This document shows, piece after piece, positions 1-12,371 of a stretch of 64,000 nt of DNA. Numbering within the stretch: the stretch's first letter is position 1; each line of letters opens with the position of its first letter. Source of the stretch: Escherichia coli (GTDB lineage: Bacteria; Pseudomonadota; Gammaproteobacteria; Enterobacterales; Enterobacteriaceae); the NCBI RefSeq assembly GCF_013122565.1, contig NZ_CP053258.1, one strand, 5' to 3'. The notes under the pieces were generated by a model. That model was given only the letters and a program-made list of their open reading frames with translations. It was not told the origin of the DNA and did no database searches. Position numbers and translations under genes: made by a program.

Positions 1-1
1 T

Positions 2-709
<708 letters not shown>

Positions 710-739
710 TGTGTTTATTTATATGGAAAGAGTTTAACA

Positions 740-1564
740 ATGCAGCAGTTACAGAACATTATTGAGACCGCTTTTGAACGCCGTGCCGAGATCACGCCAG
801 CCAATGCAGACACCGTTACCCGCGAAGCGGTAAATCAGGTGATCGCCCTGCTGGATTCCGGCGCACTGCGTGTGGCGGAAAAAATTGACGGTCAGTGGGT
901 GACGCATCAGTGGTTGAAAAAAGCGGTGCTGCTCTCTTTCCGTATTAATGATAATCAAGTAATTGAAGGAGCAGAAAGCCGCTACTTCGATAAAGTGCCG
1001 ATGAAATTCGCTGATTACGACGAAGCACGTTTCCAGAAAGAAGGCTTCCGTGTTGTGCCACCAGCGGCGGTACGTCAGGGTGCGTTTATTGCCCGTAACA
1101 CCGTGCTGATGCCGTCTTACGTCAACATCGGCGCATATGTTGATGAAGGCACGATGGTTGATACCTGGGCCACTGTCGGTTCCTGTGCACAAATTGGTAA
1201 AAACGTCCACCTTTCCGGTGGCGTGGGTATCGGCGGCGTGCTGGAGCCGCTGCAGGCTAACCCGACCATTATTGAAGATAACTGCTTCATCGGCGCGCGC
1301 TCTGAAGTGGTTGAAGGGGTGATTGTCGAAGAAGGTTCCGTCATCTCTATGGGCGTATACATTGGTCAGAGCACCCGTATTTACGACCGTGAAACCGGCG
1401 AAATCCACTACGGTCGCGTTCCGGCGGGGTCTGTGGTTGTTTCAGGTAATCTGCCGTCGAAAGATGGCAAATACAGCCTCTACTGTGCGGTTATCGTTAA
1501 GAAAGTTGACGCGAAAACTCGCGGTAAAGTTGGTATTAACGAACTGCTGCGTACCATCGACTAA
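740..1564 (+). CDS. dapD: 2,3,4,5-tetrahydropyridine-2,6-dicarboxylate N-succinyltransferase
   Basis: 274-aa ORF; sequence [34 protein letters not shown]... recognised as DapD, with hexapeptide-repeat acyltransferase character in the C-terminal half. Confidence 0.95.
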
Positions 1565-1877
1565 AAGTATGCACACGGGCAGCACGACGCTGCCCGATTG
1601 CTTTCTGGTTCAGAATAATTCGTCCTACTCATTCTTCCTCCCCCTTTTTTAAATACTTCTTCATCTTGTTTCGGACTGTCATGTAATTCGCAAAACGAAG
1701 ATAAATGTGCTAATCCATCCCATGGAATATCGCCACAATAAAGCAGGTAATTTTTTGATTTTTACGCCATGATAGAAGTCTGGAAGAAAAAGGCTTTCTG
1801 CGATCACAGTCGAGCCGGGCGGGCCAGGCCAAATGCTAAAATAAGCACAATTTACTGACTCATTTTGAGGTAACGCT

Positions 1878-2264
1878 ATGTACGACAATCTGAAAAGTCT
1901 GGGTATTACCAATCCTGAAGAAATTGATCGTTACAGCCTCCGGCAGGAAGCCAACAACGATATTCTGAAAATCTATTTCCAGAAAGACAAAGGCGAGTTT
2001 TTCGCCAAGAGCGTGAAGTTTAAATATCCGCGTCAGCGTAAAACGGTCGTCGCTGATGGTGTGGGTCAGGGTTATAAAGAAGTCCAGGAAATCAGCCCGA
2101 ATCTACGGTATATCATTGATGAGCTTGATCAAATCTGCCAGCGTGACCGCAGCGAAGTTGATCTTAAGCGTAAGATCCTCGACGACTTACGTCACCTGGA
2201 GTCAGTCGTAACCAATAAGATCAGCGAGATTGAAGCCGATCTGGAAAAACTAACGCGTAAATAA
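1878..2264 (+). CDS. yaeH: UPF0325 family protein YaeH
   Basis: 128-aa [38 protein letters not shown]... recognised as YaeH; convergent with cdaR. Confidence 0.9.
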
Positions 2265-2288
2265 TCCCGAACTGACGGTTAACTCGGG

Positions 2289-2321
2289 CATTCCCCTCTC
2301 CCCTTCGGGCTGAGGGGAATG
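2289..2321. terminator. Bidirectional hairpin between convergent yaeH and cdaR
   Basis: cattcccctc-...ccc-ttc-ggg...-gaggggaatg extended GC-rich stem in the 88-bp gap between the two stop codons. Confidence 0.55.
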
Positions 2322-2352
2322 AGTCAGCGCCGCCTCAACCTTAACGCATAAC

Positions 2353-3510
2353 CTACCGCTCTTCATCCAGTTGTAACGCCACATACAGCAGCAACCTGTC
2401 ATCAAAATTGCCCAAATCAAGCCCGGTCAGTTCCGATATACGATTAAGCCGATACTCCAGAGTATTACGATGAATAAACAGCGCCTTTGACGTAGCCAGC
2501 GGTTGCACATTGTGGCGAAACCACGCCGCCAGCGTTCGTCGCAGCAAGCCGTTATTGTCCATCGCTTTCAGCCGCGCCAGCGGTCGCGCCAGTTCGTTGG
2601 CCTGCCAGTCGCCACGCAAACTGTCGAGTAACACAGGTAACATCAGATCCTGATAAAAATAGCAGCGACTTTCTGGCATCCGCTGTTTACCCACCACCAT
2701 CGTCGTTTTCGCCGTACGATAGGATCGGGCAATACTGCCAGGACCGGTAAAATAGTTGCCCAGCGAAACGCGAAAACGCAGCTGGCCGTACTCTTTCATG
2801 CGGGTAATCAGTTGTTCAACTCGCTTACGATGATCTTCTGCATCCCAGCGCCCAAAAGAGTTCAACGCCGGTTTCAACACCACCATTTCGGTCAGCGAAA
2901 CAATTGCCACCAGATTATTACGCTCGGGCGTAGTCAGCGCGTTTTGCAGTTGCTGTAACTCCGCCATTGCGCTGTCCACGCCAAGCTGACCGCTGTCGAC
3001 CTCAACAATAGCCACCACTCGCGGTTGATTGAGATCGATCCCCAGCCGTTGCGCCCATTCCGTAAGTGCGGGAGTATTTTCCTCAGCCTGAATCAGGTTC
3101 ATCACCAGTTCTTCCCGCAAACGGCTATCCTGCGCCAACAGGTGCATCAACCGCGACTGTTCCAGCATCATTTCAGCCGTCATGCAGACCAGTTCGCCAT
3201 ATTTACGCAGGTTCTCTGGTTCACCTGTCAGGCCAATTACGCCGACAATTTCACCTTCCAGCCGTAACGGTAGATTAATCCCCTGCCGCACACCGTGCAG
3301 ATGACGTGCCACCGCGTCATCAATATCGACGACTCGTCCCTGTGAAAGCACCAGCAATGCACCTTCGTGCAATTCACCAATACGCTCACGATCGCCGCTG
3401 CCGATAATTCGCCCGCGGGCATCCATTACGTTGATATTGGTATCGATGATGCGCATGGTTCGTGCCACGATATCCTGCGCCATTTTGGTATCAAGATGCC
3501 AGCCAGCCAT
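2353..3510 (-). CDS. cdaR: Carbohydrate diacid regulator CdaR (SdaR)
   Basis: Track ORF 2353..3528; the recognised N-terminus MAGWHLDTKMAQDIV begins at the second Met (3510); C-terminal helix-turn-helix region present. Confidence 0.88.
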   Translation of the reverse strand: MAGWHLDTKMAQDIVARTMRIIDTNINVMDARGRIIGSGDRERIGELHEGALLVLSQGRVVDIDDAVARHLHGVRQGINLPLRLEGEIVGVIGLTGEPENLRKYGELVCMTAEMMLEQSRLMHLLAQDSRLREELVMNLIQAEENTPALTEWAQRLGIDLNQPRVVAIVEVDSGQLGVDSAMAELQQLQNALTTPERNNLVAIVSLTEMVVLKPALNSFGRWDAEDHRKRVEQLITRMKEYGQLRFRVSLGNYFTGPGSIARSYRTAKTTMVVGKQRMPESRCYFYQDLMLPVLLDSLRGDWQANELARPLARLKAMDNNGLLRRTLAAWFRHNVQPLATSKALFIHRNTLEYRLNRISELTGLDLGNFDDRLLLYVALQLDEER

Positions 3511-3628
3511 AAGTCCTCCGTTATGCACGGCTTAGCATAAGGAAGTACGTAACGTACGGCATTGTGCAAATGCCCAAAGGATGATGAAGATGTATGGAGT
3601 TGTGGTGAAGTTCACAGATCGTAAGGAG

Positions 3629-3656
3629 AACCCCTTCCCGTTTTCAGGAAGGGGTT
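3629..3656 (-). terminator. Stable hairpin downstream of degP (putative terminator / insulator before the cdaR promoter)
   Basis: aaccccttcc-cgttttca-ggaaggggtt 10-bp stem about 10 nt 3' of the degP stop; no U-run. Confidence 0.4.
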
Positions 3657-3664
3657 GAGGGAGA

Positions 3665-5089
3665 TTACTGCATTAACAGGTAGATGGTGCTGTCGCCGCG
3701 CTGAATGTTCAGTGCCAGCACAGACGGTTTGCTGTCGAGAACTTTACGCAGTTCAGCGATGTTTTTCACTGCCTGCTGGTTCGCGCCAATAATCACATCA
3801 CCTTTCTTCAGGCCGATCTGCGCAGCCGGAGTGCCCGTTTTCACGTTGTTCACTACCACGCCCTGATCTTTGCCTTTGTTGCTCATCTCAGCGCCTTCAA
3901 TGCCGTTGAAGATGGAGCTGGAATCAACCTGATTCTGGCTGCTCTGCTGCAGTTCCAGGTTCACGTTAACCTGCTTACCGTCGCGCAGTAAGCCCAGAGT
4001 CAGTTTGCTACCCACCGGCATAGTACCCACCTGAGCACGCAGCGCGGCAAAGCTGCTGATCGGCTTACCGTTCAGTGAGGTGATCACATCACCCGCTTTA
4101 ATGCCCGCTTTTGCAGCGGAGGAATTAGGCAGAACCTGGCTTACGAAAGCACCGCGCTGGGCGTCAACTTTCATCGCTTTGGCCAGTTCGGAGTTCAGCT
4201 CAGTCCCCATAATACCCAGCTCACCGCGTTTCACCTGGCCGTATTCCACCATCTGCGAGGTCAGGTTTTTCACCATGTTACTCGGGATAGCAAAACCGAT
4301 ACCGATGTTGCCGCCGTCCGGTGCGAGGATCGCGGTGTTGATACCGATCAGTTCGCCGTTCAGGTTAACCAGCGCACCACCGGAGTTACCACGGTTGATC
4401 GCAGCATCGGTCTGGATGAAGTTTTCGTAGTTTTCGGCATTCAGGCCGCTACGCCCCAGCGCAGAGACAATCCCGGAAGTTACCGTCTCGCCCAGACCAA
4501 ATGGGTTACCAATCGCTACGGTGTAATCACCCACGCGCAGTGCATCAGAATCCGCCATCTTAATTGCGGTCAGGTTTTTTGGGTTCTGGATTTGGATCAG
4601 CGCGATATCAGAGCGCGGATCTTTGCCAACCATCTTCGCGTCGAACTTACGACCATCGCTCAGCTGGACTTTAATCACTGTCGCGTTATCAACAACGTGG
4701 TTGTTGGTGACGACATAGCCTTTATCGGCATCAATGATGACGCCGGAACCCAGCGCCATGAATTTTTGTTGCTGGCCGCCACCATTACCGCCCTGGCCCC
4801 CCTGGCAGAACGGAGAGCTCTGGAACGGAGAACCTTCCTGGCAGAACGGTGAATCATCACCGAAGAACTGCTGGAAATTACGCGGCATACGCGGCGTATT
4901 AACGGTTGTGCTACCTTCTACGTTAATGCTGACCACTGAAGGCATCACCTTTTCGAGCATCGGTGCAAGGCTTGGCATCTGCTGGGCTGTCGTTGCTGAA
5001 GATGTCTCAGCCGCCGTTGCAGAGAGCGGAGATAACGCCAAACCTAAACTCAGAGCCAGTGCACTCAGTGCTAATGTGGTTTTTTTCAT
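3665..5089 (-). CDS. degP: Periplasmic serine endoprotease DegP (HtrA)
   Basis: 474-aa ORF with signal peptide, trypsin-like protease core (GNSGGAL) and two PDZ-like C-terminal repeats; recognised as DegP. Confidence 0.96.
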   Translation of the reverse strand: MKKTTLALSALALSLGLALSPLSATAAETSSATTAQQMPSLAPMLEKVMPSVVSINVEGSTTVNTPRMPRNFQQFFGDDSPFCQEGSPFQSSPFCQGGQGGNGGGQQQKFMALGSGVIIDADKGYVVTNNHVVDNATVIKVQLSDGRKFDAKMVGKDPRSDIALIQIQNPKNLTAIKMADSDALRVGDYTVAIGNPFGLGETVTSGIVSALGRSGLNAENYENFIQTDAAINRGNSGGALVNLNGELIGINTAILAPDGGNIGIGFAIPSNMVKNLTSQMVEYGQVKRGELGIMGTELNSELAKAMKVDAQRGAFVSQVLPNSSAAKAGIKAGDVITSLNGKPISSFAALRAQVGTMPVGSKLTLGLLRDGKQVNVNLELQQSSQNQVDSSSIFNGIEGAEMSNKGKDQGVVVNNVKTGTPAAQIGLKKGDVIIGANQQAVKNIAELRKVLDSKPSVLALNIQRGDSTIYLLMQ

Positions 5090-5134
5090 GTATTTCAGTC
5101 TCGATTAACAGATAACGCAAAATTGCTGTGTTCT

Positions 5135-5162
5135 TCAGATTCGTTTTATAGCGCGAAGTTCC
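5135..5162 (-). promoter_or_regulatory. Candidate sigma-E (RpoE) promoter of degP
   Basis: Minus-strand GGAACTT (-35; plus coords 5156..5162), 16-nt spacer, TCTGA (-10; 5135..5139), about 45 nt upstream of the degP ATG; matches the sigma-E consensus. Confidence 0.6.
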
Positions 5163-5218
5163 GAACTAAAGTTTCTGCAAAAGGTAAAAATTTATTGTTC
5201 GTCTTTACAAAAGCCTGG

Positions 5219-6736
5219 TTATTGTTCTACGGCCATCAGACGTCGGTATTCATCCCACGCATAGAGGTCGGTCATACCGCTGATATAATCCTGCAGCAGG
5301 CGGCAACGGTAATAATATTCCCATAGCGGAAACTCAGGAGAATCTGACGGTAATTTACTGACAGCCTCGACATAGGCCAGCCGATGGCGCGTCGAGAGTT
5401 TGTGGAATAAGCGCGATTCAATAGGGAAACGTTTCACCCGTTCTTTTTCTACCAGTTCAGTAAAGTCTGATAACGACAGGCTTAATAAAGGACGATAAAT
5501 CTCTAATAATCCGCTAATGACCCGATAGCCCTGCAATTCAAGCTGCTCGACATCTGGATGGCTAAACACATGTTTTACAGCGACATTTTTATATAGCTTA
5601 AGAAGATCGCTGCATTCGCTGGCATCTTCCAATAATGCATGATTAAACGTTCCGGCGAAAATCGCAGGCAGATTATCAATAAATCGTTGTGCCGCATAGG
5701 GTACCAGTTTATTTAGGGTATTTACTCGTAAATACATAAAAAACTGATCTTCCGTACTGCGGCTTAAACTATTTGAGCGTGATTTTTCCCAGGCATTTTC
5801 AACCACCAGCGAAAAGAGCGAACCTTTCTCATGCTGGCCCCACGCTTCGTGCAAATGATGATAAAGCTGCTCAACGGTAAATATTCTTTTCTCTACCGCA
5901 TCTTCAAGGTCTGCCACACAATAGGAGATGTCGTCGGCAGCTTCCATAATCCACGTTAATGGAAAACGACTGTAAAGCGCCAAATTAAGTTCTTTACGCA
6001 ACCGGGCAATATAGGCTTCTTCAGAAAGATAATAACCCGGCTTTTTCATCAAATAGTGATGTGTCTCAGGCGTTTCACCACGCCACCACGCCGGACGAGT
6101 ATATTTTAAAATACCGCCAACCTGTGCCCAGGTGAGATTCATCCGCATCAATGTATGCACCAGACGAATGCCTTGTGCATTCCCCTCAAAATGACATAAG
6201 TCCTGACGAATCTTGCGCCGCAGCTCGTTAAGCGGTTCTTCCCCGTCCCGTAAACGTAGTGCCGCCACGCTGCAGCGATCGTCAGTCAGAGGCTGGCTTT
6301 CGGCATCTTCCGGGTGCAAACGTTGGCGAAACCAGTCATTTATCGCTGCTTCGCCAAAATGACCAAACGGCGGATTGCCGATATCGTGCATCAGGCATGA
6401 CATCTCAACAATGCTTTCAAAAGGTCCGGTCAGTTCATCCAGGCCGTATGCTTCCAGCAATTTAAGCTCTTTCAGACGGCTTAAAATTTCTTTGGCGATG
6501 TAGCGCCCCACCTGCTGGACTTCCATCGAGTGGGTAAGACGCGTGCGCACGGCGGCATTGCGCTCCAGTGGAAAAACCTGGGTCTTTTGTTGCAGACGAC
6601 GAATTGCCGGAGAGTTGATGATACGCCCGCGATCGCTCTCGAAGATCCGCAGGATCTCATGTTCGGTTTTAACGCCCTGCGGTGAACGGTAACGACGATG
6701 CCAGTTTATTTTTTTTCGGAAATCAATCTGTGCCAT
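5219..6736 (-). CDS. dgt: dGTP triphosphohydrolase
   Basis: 505-aa ORF with HD-domain motif ([12 protein letters not shown]); recognised as Dgt. Confidence 0.95.
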
Positions 6737-6819
6737 GTCCTCTCCCGCGTGAGAAATACGCTTCCCCGTAAGCGCATGGTAAACTATGCCTTCAAATCGG
6801 GCTTATCGCGAGTAAATCT

Positions 6820-7518
6820 ATGAAAATCGGCATCATTGGTGCAATGGAAGAAGAAGTTACGCTGCTGCGTGACAAAATCGAAAACCGTCAAACTATCAGT
6901 CTCGGCGGTTGCGAAATCTATACCGGCCAACTGAATGGAACCGAGGTTGCGCTTCTGAAATCGGGCATCGGTAAAGTCGCTGCGGCGCTGGGTGCCACTT
7001 TGCTGTTGGAACACTGCAAGCCAGATGTGATTATTAACACCGGTTCTGCCGGTGGCCTGGCACCAACGCTGAAAGTGGGCGATATCGTTGTCTCGGACGA
7101 AGCGCGTTATCACGACGCGGATGTCACGGCATTTGGTTATGAATACGGTCAGTTACCAGGCTGTCCGGCAGGCTTTAAAGCTGACGATAAACTGATCGCT
7201 GCCGCTGAGGCCTGCATTGCCGAACTGAATCTTAACGCTGTACGTGGCCTGATTGTTAGCGGCGACGCTTTCATCAACGGTTCTGTTGGTCTGGCGAAAA
7301 TCCGCCACAACTTCCCACAGGCCATTGCTGTAGAGATGGAAGCGACGGCAATCGCCCATGTCTGCCACAATTTCAACGTCCCGTTTGTTGTCGTACGCGC
7401 CATCTCCGACGTGGCCGATCAACAGTCTCATCTTAGCTTCGATGAGTTCCTGGCTGTTGCCGCTAAACAGTCCAGCCTGATGGTTGAGTCACTGGTGCAG
7501 AAACTGGCACATGGCTAA
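6820..7518 (+). CDS. mtnN: 5'-methylthioadenosine/S-adenosylhomocysteine nucleosidase
   Basis: 232-aa [27 protein letters not shown]... recognised as MtnN (Pfs). Confidence 0.96.
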
Positions 7519-8311
7519 ATCACTGTTCAGGGCGCTGGTCGCCCTGTCTTTTCTCGCGCCACTGTGGCTCAACGCCGCGCCGCGCGTCATCACGCTTTCT
7601 CCCGCCAACACTGAACTTGCCTTTGCCGCCGGGATCACGCCGGTTGGGGTCAGCAGCTATTCCGACTATCCTCCACAAGCGCAAAAGATTGAGCAGGTTT
7701 CCACCTGGCAGGGGATGAATCTGGAACGCATTGTGGCGCTGAAACCCGATCTGGTGATTGCCTGGCGTGGAGGTAATGCCGAGCGGCAGGTTGACCAGCT
7801 AGCTTCGCTGGGAATAAAAGTGATGTGGGTCGATGCGACAAGCATTGAACAAATTGCCAATGCGTTACGTCAACTGGCCCCCTGGAGTCCGCAACCAGAC
7901 AAGGCAGAACAAGCCGCGCAATCCCTGCTGGATCAGTACGCGCAATTGAAAGCGCAATATGCTGATAAACCTAAAAAACGTGTTTTTCTGCAATTCGGCA
8001 TTAATCCGCCATTTACCAGTGGAAAAGAGTCGATTCAGAACCAGGTACTCGAAGTTTGTGGCGGAGAAAACATCTTTAAAGACAGCCGGGTTCCCTGGCC
8101 GCAAGTTAGCCGCGAACAGGTGTTAGCACGCTCGCCACAGGCGATTGTCATTACAGGCGGACCGGACCAAATTCCTAAAATCAAACAATACTGGAGTGAA
8201 CAGCTCAAAATTCCCGTTATTCCTCTCACGAGTGACTGGTTTGAACGTGCAAGCCCACGTATTATCCTCGCTGCACAACAGCTCTGTAATGCGCTTTCAC
8301 AGGTAGATTAG
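7511..8311 (+). CDS. btuF: Vitamin B12 periplasmic binding protein BtuF
   Basis: Track ORF 7484..8311; recognised BtuF N-terminus [14 protein letters not shown] starts at the ATG at 7511, overlapping the mtnN stop by 8 nt; signal peptide present. Confidence 0.9.
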
Positions 8312-8348
8312 CGCCTGACCTTTTCAGGTGCTCAGTGGGGATTGAACA

Positions 8349-8972
8349 ATGCTCGTCTATTGGCTGGATATAGTCGGCACAGCGGTATTTGCCATCTCCG
8401 GCGTTTTGTTAGCCGGAAAATTGCGTATGGACCCTTTTGGTGTTCTGGTATTAGGCGTGGTTACCGCAGTAGGCGGCGGAACAATTCGCGACATGGCGCT
8501 GGATCACGGCCCGGTATTTTGGGTGAAAGATCCCACCGATCTGGTCGTTGCAATGGTCACCAGCATGCTGACCATCGTGCTGGTGCGCCAGCCAAGACGC
8601 TTACCAAAATGGATGTTGCCGGTGCTGGACGCCGTTGGTCTGGCGGTGTTTGTAGGCATTGGCGTGAATAAAGCCTTTAATGCGGAAGCCGGTCCGTTAA
8701 TCGCGGTTTGTATGGGCGTCATTACTGGCGTTGGCGGCGGGATCATTCGTGATGTTCTGGCCCGCGAAATCCCCATGATTTTACGTACAGAAATCTACGC
8801 AACAGCCTGTATTATCGGCGGTATTGTCCACGCTACGGCTTATTACACATTTTCCGTACCACTGGAAACAGCCAGTATGATGGGCATGGTCGTGACGCTA
8901 TTGATTCGGCTGGCGGCTATTCGTTGGCATCTTAAGCTACCGACGTTTGCGCTGGATGAGAATGGGCGTTGA
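8349..8972 (+). CDS. yadS: UPF0126 inner membrane protein YadS
   Basis: 207-aa hydrophobic ORF with duplicated GGGxIRD motif; recognised as YadS. Confidence 0.9.
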   Translation: MLVYWLDIVGTAVFAISGVLLAGKLRMDPFGVLVLGVVTAVGGGTIRDMALDHGPVFWVKDPTDLVVAMVTSMLTIVLVRQPRRLPKWMLPVLDAVGLAVFVGIGVNKAFNAEAGPLIAVCMGVITGVGGGIIRDVLAREIPMILRTEIYATACIIGGIVHATAYYTFSVPLETASMMGMVVTLLIRLAAIRWHLKLPTFALDENGR

Positions 8973-8981
8973 AGAGAGAAG

Positions 8982-9008
8982 ATGTGCCGGATAGTTTATC
9001 CGGCACAT
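8982..9008. terminator. Bidirectional hairpin between convergent yadS and erpA
   Basis: atgtgccggata-gtt-tatccggcacat perfect 12-bp palindrome in the 46-bp gap. Confidence 0.6.
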
Positions 9009-9018
9009 GAACAACAGA

Positions 9019-9363
9019 TTAGATGCTAAAGGAAGAACCGCAACCGCAGGTGCTTTTCGCGTTCGGGTTGGTCACGATGAAACGAGAACCTTCCAGTCCT
9101 TCGGTATAGTCAACGGAACCGCCGACCAGATATTGCAGGCTCATCGGATCAACCACCAGGCCAACGCCCTGTTTTTCGATGGTCATATCGCCTTCGTTCA
9201 CCTGATCATCAAAGGTGAAACCATACTGGAAGCCGCTGCAACCGCCACCGGTGATATACACGCGTAATTTCAGATTCGGGTTATCTTCGTCAGCGATCAG
9301 GCTTTTAACTTTGTTGGCTGCTGCGTCGGTAAACTCCAGCGGCAGTGCTACGTCATCACTCAT
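9019..9363 (-). CDS. erpA: Iron-sulfur cluster insertion protein ErpA (A-type carrier)
   Basis: Track ORF 9019..9396; recognised start [19 protein letters not shown] at 9363; C-terminal CGCGSSF motif. Confidence 0.92.
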
Positions 9364-9444
9364 ATTTTGCTCCAAACGACATCGGCAATTGGGCAAATTC
9401 TAACCCAATAATAATCGCCATTATCTAATACCCTGGTATTTCGT

Positions 9445-10884
<1,440 letters not shown>

Positions 10885-11090
10885 TCATACAAATAAGATG
10901 ACGGCATTTTACTCGCACGTTCCATGAAAATCCTTTGCAAAGCGTAATGTTTCAAATGCACAAAACTTTTATACTCTAAGAAATCAGGATTGCACCAGTA
11001 CAAGCAGCCTGATGTTTGACGAGTATTTAACTTGTTATGAATAACATAGAATAGCAGCCATTCACTTTTTCTACGAATCAGGAACCCTCC

Positions 11091-12371
11091 ATGAGTAAGT
11101 CTGAAAATCTTTACAGCGCAGCGCGCGAGCTGATCCCTGGCGGTGTGAACTCCCCTGTTCGCGCCTTTACTGGCGTGGGCGGCACTCCACTGTTTATCGA
11201 AAAAGCGGACGGCGCTTATCTGTACGATGTTGATGGCAAAGCCTATATCGATTATGTCGGTTCCTGGGGGCCGATGGTGCTGGGCCATAACCATCCGGCG
11301 ATCCGCAATGCCGTGATTGAAGCCGCCGAGCGTGGTTTAAGCTTTGGTGCACCAACCGAAATGGAAGTGAAAATGGCGCAACTGGTGACCGAACTGGTCC
11401 CGACCATGGATATGGTGCGCATGGTGAACTCCGGCACCGAGGCGACGATGAGCGCCATCCGTCTGGCCCGTGGTTTTACCGGTCGCGACAAAATTATTAA
11501 ATTTGAAGGATGCTACCACGGTCACGCTGACTGCCTGCTGGTGAAAGCCGGTTCTGGCGCACTCACGTTAGGTCAGCCAAACTCGCCGGGTGTTCCGGCA
11601 GATTTCGCCAAACATACCTTAACCTGTACTTATAACGATCTGGCTTCTGTACGCGCCGCGTTTGAGCAATACCCGCAAGAGATTGCCTGTATTATCGTCG
11701 AGCCGGTGGCAGGCAATATGAACTGTGTTCCGCCGCAGCCAGAGTTCCTGCCAGGTCTGCGTGCGCTGTGCGACGAATTTGGCGCGTTGCTGATCATCGA
11801 TGAAGTGATGACCGGCTTCCGCGTGGCACTGGCTGGCGCACAGGATTATTACGGCGTAGTGCCAGATTTAACCTGCCTCGGCAAAATCATCGGCGGTGGA
11901 ATGCCGGTAGGCGCATTCGGTGGTCGTCGTGATGTAATGGATGCGCTGGCCCCGACGGGTCCGGTCTATCAGGCGGGTACGCTTTCCGGTAACCCGATTG
12001 CGATGGCAGCGGGTTTCGCCTGTCTGAATGAAGTCGCGCAGCCGGGCGTTCACGAAACGCTGGATGAGCTGACAACACGTCTGGCAGAAGGTCTGCTGGA
12101 AGCGGCAGAAGAAGCCGGAATTCCGCTGGTCGTTAACCACGTTGGCGGCATGTTCGGTATTTTCTTTACCGACGCCGAGTCCGTGACGTGCTATCAGGAT
12201 GTGATGGCCTGTGACGTGGAACGCTTTAAGCGTTTCTTCCATATGATGCTGGACGAAGGTGTTTACCTGGCACCGTCAGCGTTTGAAGCGGGCTTTATGT
12301 CTGTGGCGCACAGCATGGAAGATATCAATAACACCATCGATGCTGCACGTCGGGTGTTTGCGAAGTTGTGA
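11091..12371 (+). CDS. hemL: Glutamate-1-semialdehyde 2,1-aminomutase
   Basis: 426-aa [29 protein letters not shown]...; aminotransferase class III; recognised as HemL. Confidence 0.96.

Follow-up and report, generated by a model that had tools for sequence, protein, structure and literature searches.

The interval between dapD and yaeH occurs in Escherichia coli in two alternative states, and the short state, which lacks the gene yaeI, is the more frequent of the two. We describe it here from a 64-kb stretch of E. coli DNA, referred to below as the window. The short allele is very probably the scar of a deletion, left over from an old polymorphism that comprised yaeI and a neighbouring gene, designated orfX. 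The initial annotation of this DNA had left two possibilities for the missing gene, namely that it was deleted here or that it was inserted in K-12. This question proved to be answerable from sequence alone: a deletion here, relative to an Escherichia ancestor, is favoured, but it was not a clean one, as about 102 bp of unrelated filler DNA lie at the junction.

The first 7 kb of the window comprise the glnD–dapD–yaeH–cdaR–degP–dgt region, in which our gene assignments match the annotation of complete E. coli genomes. The left flank of the polymorphic site is formed by dapD (tetrahydrodipicolinate N-succinyltransferase; positions 740–1564, plus strand, an ORF of 274 aa) and the right flank by yaeH (DUF3461; 1878–2264, plus strand, 128 aa), the two being annotated as dapD and as yaeH or DUF3461 in the matching E. 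coli records. Further on, cdaR is located on the minus strand (2353–3528). The gap between dapD and yaeH spans 1565–1877. Its longest ORF, 77 aa on the minus strand, begins with TTG and overlaps the start of yaeH; the others are 40, 29, 23 and 21 aa long, and none of them matches an NCBIfam family. The coordinates and this list of ORFs bear out the earlier description of the gap as 313 bp of DNA without a credible ORF.

Sensitive searches for yaeI itself gave the same picture. In tblastn with K-12 YaeI (word size 2, E up to 1000) the best E value was 0.5 in the gap and 0.68 in the whole 64-kb window, and blastn with a word size of 7, applied to the gap and to the window, aligned only the two shared flanks, with no remnant of yaeI. 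No ORF or pseudogene fragment in the interval matches the YaeI family (NF008460) or the Metallophos domain (PF00149); K-12 YaeI itself reached 531 bits with NF008460 and was also recognized by PF00149. The layout and both kinds of search thus confirm the absence of yaeI between dapD and yaeH, and YaeI remnants, which the initial annotation had named as evidence against its own claim, were found neither in the gap nor in the window. The accompanying remark that no obvious remnant exists stands for yaeI, but not for its neighbour orfX, of which a 3′ fragment is present at 1708–1758.

K-12 does carry a gene of about 270 codons at this place, as the initial annotation stated. On a K-12-type chromosome (L001), dapD is followed by a spacer of 53 bp, yaeI (813 bp, 270 aa), a spacer of 161 bp and yaeH, so that the gap amounts to 1,027 bp. 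The arrangement dapD–yaeI–yaeH (b0166–b0164–b0163) shares with the window its flanking genes, their order and orientation, and an identical hairpin after dapD. Alignment with K-12 and other strains therefore places yaeI in K-12, and the short interval is not the K-12 state. The difference consists of an 837-bp segment with yaeI in K-12, where the window has approximately 123 bp (1605–1727); these can be divided into 102 bp of unrelated filler and 21 nt of additional orfX tail.

Outside this segment the alleles correspond to each other. The left segment common to yaeI-bearing alleles (1565–1604, plus strand) was delimited by blastn with the K-12 gap, whose positions 1–40 align at 95%, and the left junction falls within 1599–1604, inside the T-tract after the hairpin. 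The right common segment (1728–1877, plus strand) consists of the tail of orfX and then the upstream region of yaeH. Over 150 bp it matches K-12 at 98.7% identity, and it hardly varies among E. coli strains and Escherichia sp. E1V33. Homologous sequence separates orfX from yaeH in Enterobacter sp. kpr-6 (74%) and Pseudocitrobacter cyperus (64%). In alignments, both flanks are homologous to those of the long allele and colinear with them, and this applies equally to the long alleles of E. albertii, E. whittamii and MOD1-EC7003 (Escherichia sp., L014).

We determined how frequent the two states are among 5,426 complete E. coli genomes, in 5,424 of which the dapD–yaeH region was found. The filler of the short allele is present in 3,338 genomes (61.5%) and hence marks the majority state, while yaeI was detected in 2,084 genomes by megablast and in 2,085 by sensitive blastn. 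Genomes with yaeI (2,085) and genomes with the short allele (3,338) sum to 5,423. The filler is found once per genome; for yaeI, the median number of places per genome is one and the maximum two. The short allele is one side of a near-perfect, species-wide dimorphism, an ordinary presence/absence polymorphism. The allele of O157:H7, Nissle 1917, PE164 and other strains is the same as that of the window. It measures 309–314 bp, with 93.6–99.3% identity to the window over a 141-bp filler probe and 93–99.5% over an 851-bp dapD–yaeH query, PE164 being the closest (99.5%). The differences are limited to point changes and to the length of a C/T tract; the exact sequence of the window is absent from the collection. 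An error of sequencing or assembly as the source of the missing gene can be dismissed altogether, because the same interval of 309–314 bp recurs in 3,338 complete genomes, those of O157:H7 and Nissle 1917 included.

In RefSeq, the short allele is an unannotated intergenic region, in which gene callers place no gene. Published work already counts yaeI among the accessory genes and finds it enriched in phylogroup A (PMC5422975). In substance, the state without yaeI is already known, and the details of orfX and of the filler are minor curiosities. As for the relationship of the window to the sampled strains, its positions 1–12000 reach at most 98.4% identity (over 12 kb) with any of the 5,426 complete E. 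coli genomes, all of which fall between 95 and 99%. The source lineage is therefore missing from this collection; Shigella or a rare Escherichia lineage would be our guess.

The same counts bear on the idea that yaeI was not lost from the source genome and merely moved to another place in it. The source sequence on hand represents 64 kb of that genome, which gives the idea some room, but the window holds no YaeI-like sequence (best tblastn E value 0.68), and across the species the yaeI-positive and short-allele genomes add up to 5,423 of 5,426. In all 70 records listed, the yaeI match lies under a feature annotated as yaeI, and in all five yaeI-positive E. coli loci fetched (L001, L084, L091, L092 and L093) the gene directly follows dapD. 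Since sensitive blastn adds a single genome, the short-allele genomes hide no diverged yaeI elsewhere. We regard a relocation of the gene as next to negligible in probability.

The key to the origin of the short allele is orfX, an ORF of 236 aa located between yaeI and yaeH in Escherichia sp. MOD1-EC7003 (L014 3172–3882) and E. coli GF43 (L084 2513–3223). Further copies are situated at 3501–4208 in L104–L106, 3501–4235 in L107 and 3501–4238 in L108. The order dapD–yaeI–orfX–yaeH is also present in E. albertii strains and in Pseudocitrobacter cyperus, and Enterobacter sp. kpr-6 has dapD–orfX–yaeH, that is, orfX without yaeI. Thus orfX is always directly upstream of yaeH and usually right after yaeI. 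The co-occurrence of the two genes suggests that the orfX product works in a functional pair with YaeI, a Tat-exported phosphodiesterase. This product has no match in Pfam or NCBIfam and belongs to an uncharacterised family of Cys/His-rich proteins of 235–245 aa. Protein searches yielded full-length homologues with 34–61% identity, in which the motifs TCSxCxN, FHxxHCH and EPVPW are invariant. Close homologues, including full-length ones from other genera, all end with EPVPWGIA[KR]IKQVIF.

It is this end of the gene that the short allele retains. The last 15 codons and the stop codon of orfX, with an in-frame stop before them, are found at 1708–1758 on the plus strand and read C-stop-SIPWNIATIKQVIF-stop, compared with CEPVPWGIARIKQVIF-stop in MOD1-EC7003. 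When orfX was searched by tblastn against the whole window, this remnant was the top match (E = 0.006). In a fixed register, positions 1707–1727 are identical to orfX at 14 of 21 sites (p ~7e-5). This stretch is missing from K-12-type alleles, so that the window keeps about 21 nt more of orfX. Compared with the full yaeI–orfX cassette of MOD1-EC7003, GF43, some E. albertii and P. cyperus, the window has a homologous hairpin on the left and a homologous orfX tail and yaeH upstream region on the right, and between the two, yaeI and 221 of the 236 codons of orfX are missing and filler is found instead. A truncated 3′ end of orfX, with a C-terminus that is conserved in other genera, argues for an ancestor of the short allele that carried the cassette. 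As it includes about 21 nt more of orfX than the K-12-type allele does, it would represent an independent deletion and not a derivative of K-12.

To place these alleles in a wider context, the locus was retrieved with a YaeH query from 80 species-level genomes, E. fergusonii and Salmonella not being among them, and the dapD–yaeH interval was measured. Outside Escherichia, 71 of the 73 enterobacterial loci with both genes have a spacer of 106–122 bp and no yaeI. The other two, both from Enterobacter, contain unrelated inserts, and one further locus (L074) matched dapD only partially. At this deeper level, as judged from the spacers, the entire cassette represents an insertion when compared with most Enterobacteriaceae. 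The canonical spacer of Citrobacter, Klebsiella, Enterobacter, Raoultella and other genera resembles the short allele in being free of genes and in having a terminator hairpin after dapD, but it is unrelated to the window in sequence except for the ribosome binding site of yaeH, GGTAcCGCTATG. Its hairpin is GCGGG…CCCGC followed by T7, and it has its own yaeH upstream sequence, both of which differ from those of the window. An ancestral empty site has thus not been preserved in the window. Since both flanks are common to the short and the long allele, and unlike the canonical spacer, the two alleles would descend from the same cassette-bearing locus.

Within Escherichia, yaeI is located at the same site in E. 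albertii (L004, L104–L106), E. whittamii (L007), 'E. coli' SCPM-O-B-8794 (L005), whose dapD has a dS of 0.36 from K-12, and Escherichia sp. MOD1-EC7003 (L014). On the species tree, E. albertii lies outside the group formed by E. coli and the cryptic clades. YaeI of these lineages is 82–89% identical to the K-12 protein, with a dN/dS of 0.10–0.16. The full range of dN/dS for yaeI against K-12 is 0.10–0.24; against other species its dS is 0.5–0.9, which exceeds the values for dapD or yaeH in the same species pairs by a factor of roughly 1.3–2.7. By the pattern of its substitutions, yaeI behaves as a functional gene.

These comparisons weigh on the opposite polarity, according to which the short allele would be ancestral in Escherichia and yaeI, together with orfX, would have been inserted later in the K-12 lineage and some others. 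The absence of yaeI from the site in most non-Escherichia Enterobacteriaceae speaks in favour of such an order, as does the patchy distribution of the gene with its enrichment in phylogroup A; the unusual divergence of yaeI within E. coli, from 100% down to 87%, could reflect repeated import. We nevertheless consider it very unlikely that the short allele came first. The window carries the cassette-type hairpin and yaeH upstream region and not the enterobacterial spacer of about 110 bp, the T-tract, complete in the long alleles, is clipped in the short allele, and yaeI also occupies this position in E. albertii, E. whittamii and further lineages. An insertion into an 'empty' site could not create the 3′ remnant of orfX found there, which largely refutes this polarity. 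The C-terminal codons of orfX might be taken for read-through into an older spacer, but the conservation of these codons among homologues argues against this.

For the deletion that we favour, we infer the following course of events. The Escherichia ancestor would have had, between dapD and yaeH, a cassette composed of the terminator hairpin, yaeI, orfX and a cassette-specific yaeH upstream region. One or more deletions would have eliminated yaeI completely and orfX except for its last 15 codons. The site would then have been left with the dapD hairpin and its clipped T-tract, about 102 bp of filler, the orfX tail and the intact promoter region of yaeH. K-12-type alleles would have arisen by a separate, smaller deletion that affected orfX only. 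The gene order of K-12 is not the species norm at this locus, and K-12 itself would be a deletion derivative without orfX. The T-run, broken at the left junction of the short allele and present as T7 in long alleles, agrees with deletion. Two observations complicate this course. None of the cassette alleles examined contains anything that corresponds to the filler, so that the junction is not explained by a simple deletion in one step. Furthermore, Escherichia sp. E1V33, which is not E. coli, has the short allele too, at 94% identity, more than would be expected from neutral divergence (dapD dS 0.36); this closeness points to the involvement of recombination between lineages, and the age and place of the deletion therefore cannot be fixed.

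The filler specific to the short allele (1605–1706, 102 bp) is pyrimidine-rich on the plus strand, with an indel-prone C/T tract at about 1633–1650. Local alignment of both strands with shuffle controls was performed against the yaeI/orfX alleles of six lineages, the Citrobacter spacer and the two Enterobacter inserts, and all scores were at or below shuffle expectation. No homology was found either in a colinear test restricted to the 3′ region of orfX or in blastn against the fetched cassette loci. A distant blastn search of the plasmid collection gave seven hits, all from E. coli and without an annotated feature under the match; four of these records exceed 4.7 Mb and are chromosome-sized. 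The same search of the phage collection gave no meaningful matches. An insertion or excision site of a mobile element (IS or integrative) was also considered and rejected: no direct repeats occur within 1500–1950, inverted repeats are limited to the hairpin after dapD, and the window contains a single copy of the filler. Its core, 1660–1696 (TTCATCTTGTTTCGGACTGTCATGTAATTCGCAAAAC), is invariant in nine of ten aligned short alleles, the tenth, E1V33, having one substitution, and the core is retained in the otherwise rearranged E. coli BS-04. The latter strain (L083 1066–1362) has a rare and strongly diverged short allele of 297 bp between ordinary E. coli flanking genes. The left part of its filler is rewritten, and the allele also shows a 13-bp insertion, a 28-bp deletion and loss of the start codon of the small ORF described below.

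This small ORF, Cys-rich and 23 aa long, lies on the minus strand at 1561–1632 and runs through the dapD hairpin; a tract resembling a Shine-Dalgarno sequence, GGGGGAGG, is located 5 nt before its ATG. It is open in nine of 11 allele types, and its first nine bases (ATGAGTAGG) are not found in BS-04 or L096. Changes across the 11 allele types are mostly non-synonymous (T4S, Y6K, N12I/K, S16L, C17R, C20Y, A21T/M and F23S), and the Shine-Dalgarno-like tract, part of an indel-prone homopolymer region, varies in length. The ORF has no NCBIfam match and is unannotated in all matching records. The substitution pattern and its lack in two allele types lead us to reject it as a gene; it is probably fortuitous. 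A scan of 1400–2400 with Rfam 15 at a permissive E-value returned only sroE over the hairpin, whose 21 bits (E = 0.042) fall short of the gathering score of 51.

It could still be asked whether the short allele is a functional replacement, its filler encoding either the 23-aa Cys-rich peptide or a cis-antisense RNA that modulates 3′-end formation of dapD or expression of yaeH. The dimorphism would then be a swap of functions and not a loss. A strong Shine-Dalgarno-like tract before the ATG, an ORF kept open in most allele types, including that of Escherichia sp. E1V33, and a nearly invariant core that persists even in BS-04 would fit such a role, and a 100-nt fold of the minus strand has z = −3.9. 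However, this fold score is dominated by the dapD hairpin, the tract is an indel-prone homopolymer, and the ORF accumulates mostly non-synonymous substitutions, with its start lost in BS-04 and its first nine bases absent in L096. No Rfam family, protein family or consensus promoter is associated with the filler, and the ORF is never annotated. A function of this kind is in our view highly improbable, and we continue to treat the short allele as a deletion scar.

At its left end, this scar retains the probable terminator hairpin of dapD (1576–1596, plus strand), with a GC-rich stem of 8 bp, 7 of them G-C pairs (CGGGCAGC/GCTGCCCG), and the 5-nt loop ACGAC. The hairpin that had been noticed at 1577–1595 is thus real, its stem being longer by one pair. 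The 61-nt fold has a minimum free energy of −23 kcal/mol (z = −3.45), and none of 200 shuffled sequences was as stable; in a scan of 1450–2000, this was the sole terminator-like site. The stem is invariant in ten short alleles, with variation confined to the loop. Across genera it is kept by compensatory changes (GGGCAGC/GCTGCCC, GGGTGAC/GTCACCC, GGGCGAC/GTCGCCC), which supports a role as the terminator of dapD. In the yaeI-bearing alleles of K-12, L014 and L105, the hairpin is followed by an intact T-tract, ATTTTTTT (T7). In the window, the tract is interrupted, ATTGCTTTCT (five T in eight positions, passing a loose scan), the junction being ATT/GCTTTCT. Termination of dapD transcription may therefore be somewhat weaker in the short allele, and owing to the poorer U-tract after the hairpin some read-through into yaeH is possible.

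On the right side, 150 of the 161 bp of the K-12 yaeI–yaeH spacer are retained in the window. A site for RpoD holoenzyme has been reported in this K-12 spacer by genomic SELEX (PMC3946193). Upstream of yaeH, our reading of the sequence revealed a candidate extended −10-like element, TGCTAAAAT, at about 1832–1840, presumably a σ70 promoter, as well as a ribosome binding site; a consensus promoter scan of 1450–2000 found no full −35/−10 combination. The transcription start of yaeH is predicted near 1846–1850. The yaeH gene would keep its own promoter and ribosome binding site, and the strain would be devoid of the YaeI phosphodiesterase. YaeI is a metallophosphoesterase with a Tat signal and a sub-threshold similarity to LpxG (122 bits, cut-off 350). 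As a dispensable, non-essential accessory gene whose absence is the majority state of E. coli, yaeI lends its loss little wider biological weight.

In Enterobacteriaceae, genes have repeatedly been gained and lost between dapD and yaeH. Altered spacers are located at 1411–4000 in L055, 3352–4000 in L063 and 3035–5534 in L093, and in NZ_CP059288.1 (H41). In Enterobacter wuhouensis the spacer contains a minus-strand ORF of 762 aa, and in Enterobacter sp. BIGb0383 a lipoprotein-like ORF of 57 aa. In E. coli EC0026B, a truncated yaeI precedes genes that encode an integrase-domain protein and a protein with DUF3644, and in E. coli 1506 the yaeI match is in two pieces around an annotated IS1-family transposase.

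Sequence divergence at the locus varies as well. Within E. coli, yaeI alleles are 100, 98–99, 94 and 87% identical to that of K-12. The dS of dapD between the window (740–1564) and K-12 (L001) is 0.15. The deep allelic divergence of the locus within E. coli suggests introgression between Escherichia lineages around the cassette. In E. coli D10 (L091 1501–2857), yaeH has a dS of 0.66 from K-12, which is higher than that of E. albertii (0.43).
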